In this document: piece by piece, positions 3,892 to 36,109 of the stretch
Layout of the letters: the number at the start of each line of letters is the position of its first letter
Position numbering within the stretch: the first letter of the stretch is position 1
Source of the DNA: a virus
IMG/VR virus record: IMGVR_UViG_3300048599_000025
Reading direction: 5' to 3' (one strand)
Length of the DNA: 39,137 nt
Notes under the pieces: generated by a model
What the model was told of the DNA's origin: nothing
The model's database searches: none
The model's input: only the letters and a program-made list of their open reading frames with translations
Program-made: the position numbers and the translations under genes

Positions 3892-5274
3892 ATGCAAGAG
3901 AACAAATACCGGGCCGAAGCTGAACGCCTGACGCTTGACGAGGGTTTTTCGTGGCAAGAGGCGGCAGATGAATTGAACAGGCTTTACCCGGAAGAGAAAT
4001 TCACATACAACCGTGTCCGCGGCATCGTCCGAAAGGGTGACCGCTGGAAGGCTGGAGAACGCTCAAAGCGCAAGCCGAGCGAGAACAAGGCCAGGGAGCG
4101 CAAACCGGAAGAATGCCAGGGACACGGTGAGCGAGAGTATCCAAAAAGCGACAAGATCAACAAGGACGGCTCCCGAGAATCGTTCCGCATACTGGAGATT
4201 TACAAGAATCACATTTACACGCCGGACGAGCTGCTGAAGCTCCACGGCTTTGATCCCGCTGAAGAATGGGAGCTAATCGACGCCAAAAGCAACATCTGGA
4301 ACGGCACGACTGGCAAACAACGCAACAATGAGCTTGTGGAGTTGCGGCAAAGCACAGTCAGAGCAAAGCCAAAGAAGTCAGGCATCACTTTTTCCGACGT
4401 TGACCACTACTTTGACACAAAGCAATTTACCCGTAGCAAGCCAATTGTAAACCCGCTTCAGTACGACCCCAACGGCGAAGTGCTGGAGATAGATGCGCCG
4501 GACCTGCACAATGGACTATTATCGTGGGAGCCTGAAACGGGCGCAGATTACGATATCCACATTGCCAAAGAGCGTTTCTTACAGGTCATGTATGACATCA
4601 AGGAAAGGTGTGTCGACAAGAAGTACAAGAAGATTGCGTTTGCCACATTGGGCGATCTTCTTCATGTGGACAACGATGTACAGACCACCACCAAAGGCAC
4701 GCCGCAGCAGGTGGACGGCAGAATTGCAAAAATCTTTGATATCACATGCGATATGCTTATCGAGGGCATTGACATACTGGAGAGCATTGCGCCAGTTGAG
4801 GTCATATACCTTCCTGGTAACCATGACCGCGTTACGGGGTACATGCTGCTCAAGGCCATTTCTCTTGCGTACCGCTTTGACAAAAACATCACTTTTGACA
4901 CCACGCCAAACCCGCAAAAACACCGCTTGTGGGGCAAGGTGCTGGTTGGCCTTGTGCATGGCGATATAGCGAACAAAAATATGGGAACGTGGTTGCAGGA
5001 CAGGGCACGGAAAGATTACGGCCAAGCGCAGTTCGTAGAAGTTCACGCCGGACACATCCACACTGAGAAGCGCAAGGAGATATACACAATACGCCAGCAA
5101 GAGGACACAACCACAGAGGACATTGGCGGTATCGTGATACGGTATCTGCCAACCATCAGCAATTCATCGTATTGGGAGCACCTGCAAGGCTATCCTGCGG
5201 GGTGCAAGACGATGATGTGCTTTGTGTGGAATGAGCAGACAGGGCTTAGGGAGATGTGGTACAGCAATGTGTAA
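3892..5274 (+). CDS. HTH-like N-terminal domain fused to a calcineurin-type metallophosphoesterase (Mre11/SbcD-like superfamily)
   Basis: ATG 3892 (TTG 3889 is also in frame) after GGAGGG. Metallophosphoesterase motifs DLH, GDLLHVDN, GNHD, VHGD and GHIH. The N-terminal 60 aa are helical, followed by a basic linker. Confidence 0.7.
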   Translation: MQENKYRAEAERLTLDEGFSWQEAADELNRLYPEEKFTYNRVRGIVRKGDRWKAGERSKRKPSENKARERKPEECQGHGEREYPKSDKINKDGSRESFRILEIYKNHIYTPDELLKLHGFDPAEEWELIDAKSNIWNGTTGKQRNNELVELRQSTVRAKPKKSGITFSDVDHYFDTKQFTRSKPIVNPLQYDPNGEVLEIDAPDLHNGLLSWEPETGADYDIHIAKERFLQVMYDIKERCVDKKYKKIAFATLGDLLHVDNDVQTTTKGTPQQVDGRIAKIFDITCDMLIEGIDILESIAPVEVIYLPGNHDRVTGYMLLKAISLAYRFDKNITFDTTPNPQKHRLWGKVLVGLVHGDIANKNMGTWLQDRARKDYGQAQFVEVHAGHIHTEKRKEIYTIRQQEDTTTEDIGGIVIRYLPTISNSSYWEHLQGYPAGCKTMMCFVWNEQTGLREMWYSNV

Positions 5275-28662: not shown

Positions 28663-28872
28663 ATGAGCATTTCAGACATCGAAAAGTTGGAGGATCTAAC
28701 TATCACTCCACAAGTCGCATCCCTGGTACTTGGGTGTGATCCGCAAAACATCAGAGATCAGGCACATTCAAACCCTTCAATGCTTGGTTTCCCAGTAATC
28801 GTGCACGGAAGCCGCGTGAAGATTCCCCGCATACCTTTTATAAAGTATTTGACCGGGAAGGAGAACCGATGA
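28663..28872 (+). CDS. Excisionase-type (HTH_17/MerR-like) DNA-binding protein
   Basis: 69 aa. ITPQVASLVLGCDPQNIR...GFPVI..GSRVKIPRIPFIKYL resembles the Xis/AlpA-type fold. Confidence 0.45.
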   Translation: MSISDIEKLEDLTITPQVASLVLGCDPQNIRDQAHSNPSMLGFPVIVHGSRVKIPRIPFIKYLTGKENR

Positions 28873-29645
28873 ACGAACTCAAGATATTCGAGAACCCCGC
28901 ATTTGGAAGCGTCCGCACCGTACTAAAGGACAATGAACCGTGGTTTGTATCCTCTGATGTATGCAAGGTGCTGGGCCTTGAGCAAGTAAGCCGCGCAATG
29001 GATCGCATTGATCCAGACGAGAGGGGGTTATTAGAAGTAACCCACCCCCAAAGCGAAGGAAAAACAATGCTGGTCAATGGCGTAAATGAGTACGGGCTCT
29101 ACGCTTTGGTTCTTGCTTCCACAAAAGATGAAGCGAAAGCCTTCAAGCGCTGGATCACCCATGAAGTCATCCCCGACATCCGGCGCCACGGCATGTACGC
29201 CACCGCCGATACCGTGGACAAGCTGCTGAACGATCCCGACACGGCAATCAAGATGCTACAGCAGTACAAGGAAGAAAAGGCAAAACGGGTAGCACTGGAG
29301 GCCCAGGCAGAGCAGGACAAGCCCAAAGTGCTCTTCGCAGACAGCGTTGCCGCTTCCCGGCACTCCATCCTGATCGGCGAACTGGCGAAGCTGCTCAAGC
29401 AGAACGGCATCCAGATCGGGCAAAACAGGCTGTTCCAAGACTTGCGCAACGACGGTTACCTTTGCAAGGGCGGTGAGCGCTACAACCTCCCGACACAGCG
29501 CAGCATGGAAGCCGGCTGGTTCGATCTCAAGGAAACCACCATCAACAGGCCCGACGGCGCGGTGATGGTCACCAGGACCACGAAAGTTACCGGTCGCGGG
29601 CAAATCTACTTCATCAATCGGTACTTGGGACAAAAGGAAGCGTAA
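28869..29645 (+). CDS. Antirepressor (Bro-N domain plus KilA-C/ANT domain)
   Basis: 258 aa. Bro-N-type LKIFENPAFGSVRTVLKDNEPWFVSSDVCKVLG. C-terminal KilAC-like ...VLFADSVAASRHSILIGELAKLLKQNGIQIGQNRLF.... Confidence 0.85.
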   Translation: MNELKIFENPAFGSVRTVLKDNEPWFVSSDVCKVLGLEQVSRAMDRIDPDERGLLEVTHPQSEGKTMLVNGVNEYGLYALVLASTKDEAKAFKRWITHEVIPDIRRHGMYATADTVDKLLNDPDTAIKMLQQYKEEKAKRVALEAQAEQDKPKVLFADSVAASRHSILIGELAKLLKQNGIQIGQNRLFQDLRNDGYLCKGGERYNLPTQRSMEAGWFDLKETTINRPDGAVMVTRTTKVTGRGQIYFINRYLGQKEA

Positions 29646-29657
29646 AGGAGGCCCCTC

Positions 29658-30074
29658 ATGATCCTTCCCATCACAAAAGACATCGACACCCTTCACACCG
29701 TCAGCGAGCCCGCCTCATGGGAAGATGACCGCCGTGTGGTGATCGACCTGCTTAACACTGCCCAGGCCCACGAAGACCGCTGCGCCGGACTTGCTGCAAT
29801 CCAGATTGGCATACCCAAGCGCGTGATCGTTGTGAAGATGGGCAGTCGGTTCGCTGCCATGCTGAATCCAGTGATCCTGTGGCGGTCAAAGGAAACCTAC
29901 ACTGCCGAAGAAGGCTGTTTGAGCCTGGACGGTACGCGCAAGGTGAAGCGACATGAGGCTGTCAAGGTTGGCTATCAAGACCGCAACGGCAAGCGCAGGC
30001 TTGAGCAGTACGGCGGCATGATCGCTGAAATCATCCAGCACGAAGTAGACCATTGCAACGGGATATTGATTTGA
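29658..30074 (+). CDS. def: Peptide deformylase
   Basis: 138 aa with all three PDF motifs: GLAAIQIG, EGCLS and QHEVDH. Confidence 0.85.
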   Translation: MILPITKDIDTLHTVSEPASWEDDRRVVIDLLNTAQAHEDRCAGLAAIQIGIPKRVIVVKMGSRFAAMLNPVILWRSKETYTAEEGCLSLDGTRKVKRHEAVKVGYQDRNGKRRLEQYGGMIAEIIQHEVDHCNGILI

Positions 30075-33405: not shown

Positions 33406-33598
33406 TGGAATAAGGCACCGCGGACCTGAGTGTGTAAAGCACGTAATTTTGATTCTTGTTCTTTGTGTTGTTGGACGCGGAACACAGGACGATCCCGTGC
33501 GGAACATTGAACAGTATTGGGACTTCAACGGCAAAAAACTCTTTGAAATAGACCGTTGGTTGATCGAAAGGAAGCGTTCCAATGAAAACACTGATTAG
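33392..33598 (+). CDS. Hypothetical protein
   Basis: 68 aa, overlaps both neighbours. Confidence 0.4.
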   Translation: MHQIDGIRHRGPECVKHVILILVLCVVGRGTQDDPVRNIEQYWDFNGKKLFEIDRWLIERKRSNENTD

Positions 33599-34475
33599 TA
33601 CCGCCAATATGCCCCGCGAAGAATGGTTGCAATGGCGTAAGAAGGGAATAGGCGGAAGCGATGCGGCAACCGTTGTTGGCCTGAACCCCTACTCGTCCTT
33701 GCTTTCCCTGTACGCTGAAAAGCTGGGGCTGCTTCCTGAAAAAGAGGATACCGAGCAGATGCGGCAAGGCCGAGACCTGGAACAGTATGTTGCTGAACGC
33801 TTCATGGAGGCAACCGGGAAGAAGGTCAAGCGGCTCAATGCCATGCTTGTGCATCCTGAGAACGACTTCATGATTGTAAACCTTGACCGGGTTGTTGTTG
33901 GGGAAAACGTACCGCTCGAGTGTAAGACAACAAGCGTCTACAACAAATCGGACTTTGAAAACGGGGAAATACCGCCTTACTACTACGTTCAGGTGCAGCA
34001 TGAATGCGCGGTATATGGCGCTCCGTATGGATACCTGGCGGTGTTGGTTCTCAATAAGGGGTTTTTCTGGTATCGCATCGATGCAGACCCGAACGAACAA
34101 GCCGCCCTGATCTCAGCAGAGCGCAAGTTCTGGTATGAAAACGTCATGGCTCAGGTTCCGCCCGACCCCGATGGAAGCGAATCCGCCCGTGAGGCTGTAC
34201 AAGCCCTTTGCAGCCCCAAGGACGAGCCTACAGGCGAAGCCCTCCTGCACGACATGGACAAGGACATAGCGCGTCTGCTGGCCTTACAGGAGCAAATAAA
34301 GCCTATACAGACCGAAGTGGATGCAATCAAACAAAAGATAGCGCTTGCCATCGGTGAAAACGCCTACGGCATGAGCAACGTCGCAAAGGTAAGCTATCTC
34401 ACCCAATATCGAAAGGAACACATGGTAAAAGCCAGTGTATCCCGTGTGCTGCGCGTAACCGCGCTGAAAGGATAA
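33582..34475 (+). CDS. YqaJ-type viral recombinase exonuclease (lambda Exo-like)
   Basis: 297 aa. EEWLQWRKKGIGGSDAATVVGLNPY..., ...LECKT... and YYYVQVQHE motifs. Confidence 0.85.
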   Translation: MKTLISTANMPREEWLQWRKKGIGGSDAATVVGLNPYSSLLSLYAEKLGLLPEKEDTEQMRQGRDLEQYVAERFMEATGKKVKRLNAMLVHPENDFMIVNLDRVVVGENVPLECKTTSVYNKSDFENGEIPPYYYVQVQHECAVYGAPYGYLAVLVLNKGFFWYRIDADPNEQAALISAERKFWYENVMAQVPPDPDGSESAREAVQALCSPKDEPTGEALLHDMDKDIARLLALQEQIKPIQTEVDAIKQKIALAIGENAYGMSNVAKVSYLTQYRKEHMVKASVSRVLRVTALKG

Positions 34476-34478
34476 AAT

Positions 34479-35303
34479 ATGCAAACTCAAATCACAAACA
34501 GCCCCACCAATACCACCGGCATGATCGGACAGGCGGCGGCCGCAAAAGAACTTTCCACAAAAAAGGCAAGCCCAGCCACCATCATGAACCAGATCGTTAA
34601 CGCCGCCTCTACGCAGGAACTTATGAAACGGAGCCTGGGGGAAAACGCCGGGGCTTATACCGCCTCTATTATCGACCTTTACAATACCGATAAAGGGCTT
34701 CAAGAATGCGATGCCGGCCAGGTGATGCGGGAATGCCTCAAGGCCGTATCCCTCAAACTGCCTATCAACAAACAACTTGGTCTTGCATGGGTTATTGCCC
34801 GCAAAAAGAAGGGCGTACCGCTTCCCGCTTTCCAAATCGGCTACAAGGGATATGTTCAGCTTTGTATGCGCACTGGGGCATATAGGTATCTCAATGCTGA
34901 CATGGTGTACGAAGGTGAACTGAGAGCGGCAGACAAGCTCACCGGGGCTATCGACCTGAACGGCGAACGCACCAGTGATACAGTGATAGGCTATTTTGCC
35001 TACATGGAAACGCTCAACGGATTTTCCAAAGCCATCTACTGGCCGACAAAGAAGATCACCGAGCACGCTAAGAAGTATTCCCCCTCTTTTTCTTTCTCCG
35101 ACAGCGCATGGCAGACAGACTTTGACGAAATGGCAAAGAAAACCGTACTGTCTGAACTGCTGCGCAAGTGGGGCGTGATGTCTGTTGAAATGGAAACTGC
35201 GTTCAACGCCGACAATGCCGATGCGGCGGATCAGCAGATCGTAAGCGACCAGCCTGCAATACCTGCGGAAGGTGAAGTTGATGAACTGGACCGGGCGGAG
35301 TAA
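34479..35303 (+). CDS. recT: RecT-family single-strand annealing protein
   Basis: 274 aa. Typical RecT core (…LPINKQLGLAWVIARKKKGVPLPAFQIGYKGYVQL…) with an acidic C-terminus. Follows the exonuclease gene. Confidence 0.9.
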   Translation: MQTQITNSPTNTTGMIGQAAAAKELSTKKASPATIMNQIVNAASTQELMKRSLGENAGAYTASIIDLYNTDKGLQECDAGQVMRECLKAVSLKLPINKQLGLAWVIARKKKGVPLPAFQIGYKGYVQLCMRTGAYRYLNADMVYEGELRAADKLTGAIDLNGERTSDTVIGYFAYMETLNGFSKAIYWPTKKITEHAKKYSPSFSFSDSAWQTDFDEMAKKTVLSELLRKWGVMSVEMETAFNADNADAADQQIVSDQPAIPAEGEVDELDRAE

Positions 35304-35345
35304 TCCGCCCCAGCCCTTTCCCCCAAGGCCGAGGATGGTTCTGGC

Positions 35346-35432
35346 ATGGGCGACATGGGCCAGGGTGCGCAGGCAAGCAGCAGGGATGCAAGCGGGTTTA
35401 CGCAGGTGGATGAAGATGAATTGCCGTTTTGA
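35346..35432 (+). CDS. Candidate 28-aa micro-ORF or read-through extension ending in an SSB-type acidic tip (DEDELPF)
   Basis: MGDMGQGAQASSRDASGFTQVDEDELPF. GAGGA lies 10 nt upstream. It is in the same frame as recT, and all 43 codons between the recT TAA and this stop are open. Confidence 0.3.
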   Translation: MGDMGQGAQASSRDASGFTQVDEDELPF

Positions 35433-35440
35433 GGTGAAGC

Positions 35441-36109
35441 ATGCTTGAATCCGGCTTTTATTTAATGGACTGCATGGACGGCATGGCGCAGTTCCCGGAT
35501 AAGTTCTTTGAGTTGGCGATAGTGGACCCGCCGTATGGGATCAACATCAACATGAACCAAGGCAGGCGCAAGGGCGATATTATCAAGCACGCAAAGAAGG
35601 AATGGGATAAAGACGCTCCGACGCATTTGTTTTGGGACGAGTTGACAAGGGTTTCTGTAAACCAAGTAGTGTGGGGAGCCAACAATTTTGCTTGGCTTCC
35701 ACCTCACAACGGATGGGTTGTGTGGGATAAGGACATAACCGGTGACGTGCCATTTTCAAAGGCAGAGCTTGCGTACAACAGCATTATTAATGCGGTTGAT
35801 ATGGTAAAAATACGGGCGCAAACAGGAGAAGAAACGTACGCAAATAAAATCCACCCCACACAAAAGCCCATAGCCCTCTACAAGTGGCTCCTGACCAACT
35901 ACGCCAAGCCCGGTGACAAGATGCTTGACACGCATGTCGGCAGCGCATCCAGCCTTGTGGCGTGTCATCAGATGGGCTTTCAATATTGGGGCTTTGAGTT
36001 GGACCCGGACTACTTCAAGGCAGCCACTGAACGGCTGGAAAAGGCCAAGGCGCAGGTGAGTTTGTTTGATAATGTGCCACAACTCAAGGCTGAACAAGTT
36101 GGATTCTGA
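35441..36109 (+). CDS. Orphan DNA N6-adenine methyltransferase (N6_N4_Mtase family, beta-class order)
   Basis: 222 aa. Has VDPPYG near the N-terminus and the AdoMet-binding-like MLDTHVGSASS plus HPTQKP near the C-terminus. No adjacent restriction gene. Confidence 0.85.
   Translation: MLESGFYLMDCMDGMAQFPDKFFELAIVDPPYGININMNQGRRKGDIIKHAKKEWDKDAPTHLFWDELTRVSVNQVVWGANNFAWLPPHNGWVVWDKDITGDVPFSKAELAYNSIINAVDMVKIRAQTGEETYANKIHPTQKPIALYKWLLTNYAKPGDKMLDTHVGSASSLVACHQMGFQYWGFELDPDYFKAATERLEKAKAQVSLFDNVPQLKAEQVGF

Follow-up and report, generated by a model that had tools for sequence, protein, structure and literature searches.

A probable relic of the 3' end of a phage ssb gene in the reading frame of the preceding recT

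The viral record IMGVR_UViG_3300048599_000025 (39,137 nucleotides (nt); this whole stretch of DNA is called the window in the following) carries, directly behind its recT gene, a short open frame whose translation ends like a single-stranded DNA-binding protein (SSB). The recT gene (34479-35303, plus strand) encodes 274 residues, matches the Pfam family RecT (PF03837, E=1.9e-34) and stops with TAA at 35301-35303. The recT frame then stays open from 35304 to 35429 over 42 sense codons, which translate to SAPALSPKAEDGSGMGDMGQGAQASSRDASGFTQVDEDELPF, and is closed by TGA at 35430-35432 right behind the C-terminal end GFTQVDEDELPF. An earlier note on this DNA had counted 43 codons here; the open frame, its phase with recT and its stop at 35430-35432 hold, and the number 43 is reached when the stop codon is included. 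Its positions for the recT stop, the open frame, an internal ATG and the gap behind recT were all borne out by reading the window, as was the statement that the frame nearly fills this gap: 129 of the 137 nt between recT and a methyltransferase gene are taken up by it, and 8 nt separate the TGA from the methyltransferase ATG at 35441. Within the frame, an open reading frame (ORF) of 28 residues (MGDMGQ...DEDELPF, 35346-35432, plus strand) begins at ATG 35346, with GAGGA at 35331-35335, 10 nt 5' of it; the ORF is present, and as a gene it is unsupported.

That this frame encodes an SSB-type linker with the acidic tip DEDELPF, as had been proposed from the letters alone, is corroborated by a profile match and by DNA identity with ssb genes. 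A profile built from 37 phage SSBs was run against the six-frame translation of the window, and the segment was its sole match (E=9.3e-7), aligning with the final 24 positions of the profile. In the DNA, a stretch of 26 nt, GGGTTTACGCAGGTGGATGAAGATGA (window 35393-35418), which lies in the codons of the C-terminal tip GFTQVDEDELPF (35393-35429, plus strand), is identical (26/26 nt) to positions 4688-4713 in the ssb of locus L081, whose SSB has the C-terminus GKEQDGFTQVDEDDLPF, i.e. ends in GFTQVDEDDLPF directly before its stop. When this common 26-mer was scanned against 185,579 species genomes, one further locus was obtained, L150, in a metagenome-assembled genome (MAG) of the Bacillota (JAFADG010000001.1). 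The L150 SSB is complete (PF00436, E=2.5e-31, domain at residues 2-103) and its C-terminus reads TADDIEFLSPRAEDGSGMGSMGQSVQGSSRDAGFTQVDEDELPF, i.e. it ends in EFLSPRAEDGSGMGSMGQSVQGSSRDAGFTQVDEDELPF. Aligned with its end LSPRAEDGSGMGSMGQSVQGSSRDA-GFTQVDEDELPF, the segment LSPKAEDGSGMGDMGQGAQASSRDASGFTQVDEDELPF agrees in 32 of 37 residues and in 90 of 109 nt, with one in-frame 3-nt indel. Because the segment is the only six-frame profile match and furthermore shares 26/26 nt with L081 and 90/109 nt with L150, its resemblance to SSB is evidently not due to chance.

The motif GFTQV(D/E)4LPF was present in 56 IMG/VR contigs, where it closes a full-length SSB of typically 143-175 residues if the stored upstream DNA is long enough; the exceptions were three contigs cut by the locus edge, three longer ORFs and one shortened copy. 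The shortened copy (L131, IMG/VR, minus strand, ~4189-4224) lies inside its locus as an SSB-tail ORF of 80 residues from the first start, in an open frame of 126 codons, and may be another truncated or frameshifted ssb.

The extent of the homology was delimited by codon-by-codon alignment with L150. The match spans the window from a leucine codon (CTT 35316) through the stop codon, and this leucine corresponds to residue 103 of the L150 SSB, the last residue of the Pfam OB-fold domain; 5' of CTT 35316, similarity to the L150 ssb is absent. The putative ssb remnant (35316-35432, plus strand) consequently comprises 38 codons, for this last OB-fold residue, the disordered linker and the acidic tip, and ends with TGA, the stop codon of ssb. 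On its left, only 5 nt separate CTT 35316 from TCCGCCCC, the 3' arm of a hairpin across the recT stop that is common to the window and locus L087. Since the L150 homology starts at 35316 and only 5 nt remain up to the hairpin arm, a deletion or recombination junction can be placed within a few nucleotides, at 35311-35315 (plus strand), with the recT hairpin arm to the left and ssb homology to the right. The remnant is without ssb's own 5' start, as upstream of 35316 there are only the hairpin arm and these 5 nt. Measured against the SSB family, it possesses the disordered Gly/Ser/Gln-rich linker and the acidic (I/L)-P-F tip at the extreme C-terminus and lacks the OB fold, the ssDNA-binding domain of about 100 residues; the 42-residue translation gave no Pfam match. 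An OB-fold SSB was found nowhere else in the window, neither with the 37-SSB profile in six frames nor by a Pfam scan of 28 ORFs, so that the earlier statement that the genome has none holds for the window.

Relatives were sought by blastn against 50,697 phage records, which yielded short, distant matches only, and the best RecT match had 55% identity in IMG/VR and 70% in a collection of 5.8 billion proteins. In the closest relative (L081-L086, with RecT P0001, from a Syntrophales MAG and digester metagenomes) the gene order is YqaJ (78% identity), RecT (70%), orf153 (153 residues), SSB (PF00436) and a methyltransferase homologue, which in L081 follows ssb directly and is 59% identical to the window methyltransferase over the 68 residues available. 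The corresponding genes of the window are a YqaJ-type exonuclease (33582-34475, plus strand; PF09588, E=4e-33; 78% identical to the L081 YqaJ), with which the recombination module begins, and an N6/N4 DNA methyltransferase (35441-36109, plus strand; PF01555, E=4e-14), whose homology to the post-ssb gene of L081, over its first 68 residues, includes a 30-nt identical stretch. The distance from the ssb stop to the methyltransferase ATG is 9 nt in L081 and 8 nt in the window, and in both the Shine-Dalgarno sequence overlaps the ssb stop (the Shine-Dalgarno-like GAGGTGA at 35431-35437, plus strand, in the window; the same layout, TTTTAGGAGGTACACATG, in L081). In the next tier of relatives (L151-L155, RecT identity 56-59%) YqaJ, RecT and SSB follow one another directly, the ssb overlapping the end of recT by 11 nt. 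At L087 recT is followed after 28 nt by a different methyltransferase, at L088, L146 and L147 by replication genes, and ssb is absent at this position in all of them. As these four loci carry other genes after the same recT hairpin, the position behind recT is a variable module boundary and ssb a dispensable cassette. The segment has what is expected of a gene remnant, i.e. partial homology to a gene that is intact in relatives, and this in syntenic position. With respect to the comparison with relatives that had been proposed as a check, a full ssb stands here in L081 and L151-L155, none of the close homologues has a sense codon in place of the recT TAA, and the arrangement of the window recurs nowhere in the three collections searched.

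The search for the arrangement itself was carried out with a pattern of recT hairpin, N{70,100} and tip, which matches the window once as validation and gave 0 matches in IMG/VR, in 241 million metagenome records and in the genome collection. The 42-residue peptide yielded no candidates in a word-index search of 5.8 billion clustered proteins and no stand-alone homologue in an index-free HMMER search of 1.84 billion representatives, the single marginal match of the latter being P0121, an unrelated acidic repeat protein of 1011 residues. As judged by these searches, the OB-less truncated form is not conserved as such in other genomes.

Some further observations concern the joint between ssb and the methyltransferase gene. 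Two DNA islands of perfect identity were seen between the window and L081, one of 26 nt (35393-35418) and one of 30 nt (35459-35488 versus ~4755-4784), which correspond to the ssb tip and the 5' end of the methyltransferase gene, while the flanking proteins are just 59-78% identical; this suggests a recent exchange or a recombination hot spot at this joint. In L150 (MAG Bacillota bacterium OH_SBB_70; ssb on the minus strand, 272-688) a homologous methyltransferase (52% identity) lies directly upstream of ssb, unlike in L081 and the window, where it lies downstream of ssb and of the remnant, respectively. The L150 ssb frame begins right after the TGA of this methyltransferase gene, and close to its 5' end it contains neither ATG nor GTG nor TTG; possibly ATC is its start, or the MAG contains a 1-nt error. 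An ORF resembling C5-cytosine methylases follows this ssb.

The end of recT deserves separate consideration. The five closest RecT homologues (P0001-P0005, 63-70% identity) all terminate where the RecT of the window does, their ends being ...DGAE, ...DRAE or ...ERVE, which identifies the TAA as the clade's native stop and not a mutation. It lies in the GNRA-type loop of a hairpin with a 7-bp stem (GGGCGGA-GTAA-TCCGCCC, 35293-35310, plus strand), which is part of the predicted minimum free energy fold. The hairpin is conserved in L081-L088, L146 and L147 with a perfect stem of 6-7 bp and a loop of GTAA or GTGA, the stop codon of this clade varying between TAA and TGA, and its non-coding 3' arm is kept despite a RecT identity of only 63-70% and unrelated genes downstream; at more distant RecT loci the hairpin was not found. 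Because no T-run follows, it is evidently not an intrinsic terminator; it marks the conserved end of the recT module and may be an element of mRNA stability or processing, or a recombination boundary sequence. The fold of 35270-35450 as a whole is no more stable than that of shuffled sequences (z = -0.35), the recT-stop hairpin being its only structure, and neither a terminator nor a promoter was found between recT and the methyltransferase gene.

On this basis, we regard 35316-35432 as the 3' end, no longer functional, of a phage ssb gene from which the OB-fold part was deleted, and put the probability of this reading at about 90%. The earlier note had named such a relic, in frame with recT by chance, as the last of three interpretations, and the DNA homology to L150, the synteny and the lost OB fold speak for it; the other two, on which the note had placed its interest, namely read-through of the recT stop and a free tip peptide, are unsupported. 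A complete ssb at this position in relatives, with a 3' end matching the segment, was what the note itself had named as evidence against those two, and relatives carry this.

According to this reading, the ancestor would have had a YqaJ exonuclease, RecT, an optional small ORF and SSB, followed by the DNA methyltransferase. An event at the module boundary, either a deletion or an illegitimate recombination, would have joined a point just behind the recT hairpin to the last OB-fold codon, whereby some 0.3-0.8 kb would have been lost (~0.3 kb from a canonical recT-ssb ancestor, ~0.8 kb from an L081-like one), including the ssb start, its ribosome-binding site and the entire DNA-binding domain. 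Left behind would be the codons of linker and acidic tip together with the stop codon, as well as the methyltransferase ribosome-binding site that overlaps it. That the frame is still open would be due to its origin as the reading frame of ssb and to the recent date of the event, and its being in frame with recT would be a 1-in-3 coincidence. Ribosomes translating recT would terminate at the native TAA, the remnant would probably be transcribed as a 137-nt spacer inside the operon and presumably escape translation, and the phage would now rely on the host SSB.

Several points weigh against this interpretation. Signs of neutral decay are lacking, as the remnant contains no stops and no frameshifts and differs from L150 by a single in-frame 3-nt indel, with a ratio of non-synonymous to synonymous divergence (dN/dS) of 0.13; such an intact remnant is predicted by a recent deletion, but would be predicted equally by continued selection on the peptide. 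Furthermore, the nearest available RecT relative is only 70% identical, so that the window's own lineage is unrepresented and the decay of the remnant cannot be traced. Finally, an open frame behind the recT stop that has the phase of the next gene is seen not only in the window but also in L081 (3799-4338) and in the group of L088 (1554-2291), L146 (from 1059) and L147 (from 942), which have one shared spacer; in L087 the next gene is out of frame. Three of four independent junctions in frame correspond to p ~0.1 for the frame alone, calculated post hoc, and the downstream genes are mutually unrelated. The in-frame continuation is not family-wide, since ssb lies in the +1 frame in L151-L155 and most read-through frames behind recT stops extend over 0-22 codons. 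In-frame junctions in the hairpin clade are therefore probably coincidental, though unexplained. Within this group, the spacer of L147 differs from that of L146 by a 12-nt frame-preserving deletion. At three other viral loci (L008, L012 and L026) the RecT stop (ends ...GPSF, ...MGF or ...EAPF) is followed with zero spacer by an in-frame ORF of 233-246 codons, which has a metallo-beta-lactamase-like HxHxDH motif.

The comparison of synonymous and non-synonymous changes, which had also been proposed beforehand, was performed against the L150 ssb. Over 37 codons the Nei-Gojobori method gave Sd=13 and Nd=11, from which the dN/dS of 0.13 results, and the tip differs from the L150 tip by four synonymous and 0 non-synonymous changes, i.e. 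the tip protein is identical. The low ratio implies that most of the divergence arose under protein-level constraint. Such a ratio is expected of a deletion that came late after the split (dS ~1), because both lineages would have had an intact ssb most of the time. The value is no proof that constraint on the remnant has ceased, and this is the main reason for leaving a few per cent to a co-opted remnant. A remnant of this kind would act as a 28-residue tip peptide from ATG 35346 or as a trace RecT-tip read-through product and dock on proteins that bind the SSB C-terminus, the phage RecT included; if true, the tip would be a decoy or adaptor created by domain loss. With the tip intact and a usable ATG and Shine-Dalgarno sequence, co-option retains a slim chance.

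A free peptide of 28 residues from ATG 35346 could compete as a decoy with the host SSB for its partners or couple translation to the methyltransferase start 8 nt downstream. The GAGGA 10 nt upstream of the ATG, the tip without non-synonymous changes relative to L150, and an ORF stop that overlaps the methyltransferase Shine-Dalgarno sequence in the same manner as the L081 ssb stop, which makes coupling mechanistically possible, are all in keeping with it. The start signals, however, turn out to be old: GAGGA and ATG are codons of the A-E-D-G...M stretch of the SSB linker, and the complete ssb of L150 has both at the same distance from each other (GCCGAGGACGGCAGCGGAATGGGC in L150 versus GCCGAGGATGGTTCTGGCATGGGC in the window), so that they were in all likelihood inherited, did not evolve for a new gene and are not diagnostic of one. 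Moreover, a stand-alone homologue was absent from the 5.8 billion clustered proteins and the 1.84 billion representatives, a second OB-less arrangement was not found in viral, metagenome or genome contigs, and relatives do without the peptide, L087 passing from recT to its methyltransferase within 28 nt. The tip mimic or decoy suggested in the earlier note is very improbable for these reasons. Read-through or recoding of TAA 35301 would instead produce a minor RecT isoform with SSB linker and tip, which would tether RecT to host proteins that bind the SSB tip or fill RecT's own SSB-tip pocket. For this the 42 codons are open in the recT frame, in-frame continuations are likewise seen in L081 and the L088 group, and an acidic tail of the ...PF type is the natural C-terminus of 44 among 120 RecT homologues of greater distance. 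The fused tip would also have a binding partner, because the last ~7 residues of SSB are a recognition target of RecT and Red-beta proteins (bioRxiv 10.1101/2020.04.14.041095; PMC13490951), a recognition that explains why ssb travels with recT and why the idea of the earlier note was a reasonable one.

What speaks against read-through is the stop itself and what follows it. The TAA is native to the clade, and the variation between TAA and TGA among its members is contrary to a codon-specific recoding. The context TAA-T (GAG TAA TCC) should not be leaky, as it is the strongest termination signal known from bacteria, where UAAU is the most efficient termination tetranucleotide. A terminating ribosome must have melted the hairpin that holds the stop in its loop, and the hairpin should therefore not serve as a downstream stimulator. 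The extension is conserved neither in frame nor in sequence: behind the stop, relatives carry orf153, replication genes, the other methyltransferase out of frame (L087) or ssb in the +1 frame (L151-L155), in none of them does the tail follow recT, and the combination of recT hairpin and tip is unique to the window in the three collections searched. The RecT-tip isoform is thus less credible still than the free peptide. As a first working hypothesis we had considered that the RecT once possessed an acidic ...PF tail of its own and that the TAA is a recent nonsense mutation or a sequencing error, which would fit the ends ...APF, ...GPDF or ...DDYPF(xx) that are common among RecT homologues of 45-58% identity. 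This was ruled out by the shared stop of the closest homologues, all of which end at the same residue with the hairpin across the stop conserved, and by the DNA homology of the tail to ssb genes and not to RecT tails, whose linkers bear no similarity to that of the window; its probability is practically nil.

The acidic ends of RecT proteins are nevertheless an observation in their own right. In a survey of 80 IMG/VR RecT loci (36-55% identity) many RecTs were found to end in an acidic ...APF, ...GPDF or ...GPGF tail. Among the homologues P0006-P0120 and the viral loci L003-L026, many have acidic disordered tails that close with ...(E/D)APF, ...GPDF, ...GPGF or ...D-D-Y-P-F plus 1-3 residues, and 44 of 120 RecT homologues have PF among their five C-terminal residues; such an end resembles the SSB tip. 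The idea that these tails replace a missing ssb was rejected, as an ssb gene accompanied such a tail at 5 of 15 loci, compared with 3 of 21 loci without the tail. The ...PF tail could be a motif for exonuclease docking, for host-factor docking or for self-inhibition.

Apart from the recombination module, the window carries an integrase, an antirepressor, a G39P-type helicase-loader gene and structural genes, and it is a temperate phage or prophage. A peptide deformylase gene (29658-30074, plus strand; PF01327, E=2.4e-32) was seen in the early region, flanked by the antirepressor gene (Bro-N/KilAC, 28869-29645) and a Lar-like ORF.

Read as a deletion remnant, the segment documents the routine loss of an accessory ssb from a phage exo-recT-ssb module. 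It also calls for caution in annotation, as an open, in-frame, motif-bearing extension past a stop codon can stem from the 3' end of a neighbour gene that was deleted. Should the tip be expressed after all, it would be a natural case of a short linear interaction motif freed from its parent protein.

The background on which the earlier note had drawn, i.e. the linker-plus-tip architecture of SSB and the exo-recT-ssb modules of phages, is correct and provides the terms for a comparison with known systems. In comparison to SSB (PF00436), the segment is alike in its linker, its tip, the exact C-terminal position of the latter and the layout of stop and ribosome-binding site, as seen in L150, L081 and the 56 IMG/VR contigs, but it has neither the OB fold nor the original start and ribosome-binding site, and its product would be unable to bind ssDNA or to tetramerise; because the OB fold is absent, it is to be called an ssb gene fragment and not an SSB. 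The exo-recT-ssb type of module is represented by genes 34.1-35-36 of SPP1, and the window agrees with the modules of L151-L155 in gene order and families, with YqaJ and RecT intact and the remnant in the position of ssb. It differs from them in that the third member is cut to its last 38 codons, while L087, L088, L146 and L147 have lost ssb or never had it. Programmed read-through is exemplified by the A1 protein of Q-beta, which is made through a leaky UGA; an open in-frame extension after the stop is common to both cases, whereas in the window the stop is TAA-T, the extension is not conserved and a downstream stimulatory element is absent. A further likeness is to the truncated genes at mosaic boundaries of temperate phages, with a syntenic partial gene beside a short conserved boundary and differing cassettes behind it, and the only oddity is that an intact short linear motif has survived, in frame with the upstream gene. 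The segment fits this ordinary category, a truncated gene at a mosaic boundary of a temperate phage.

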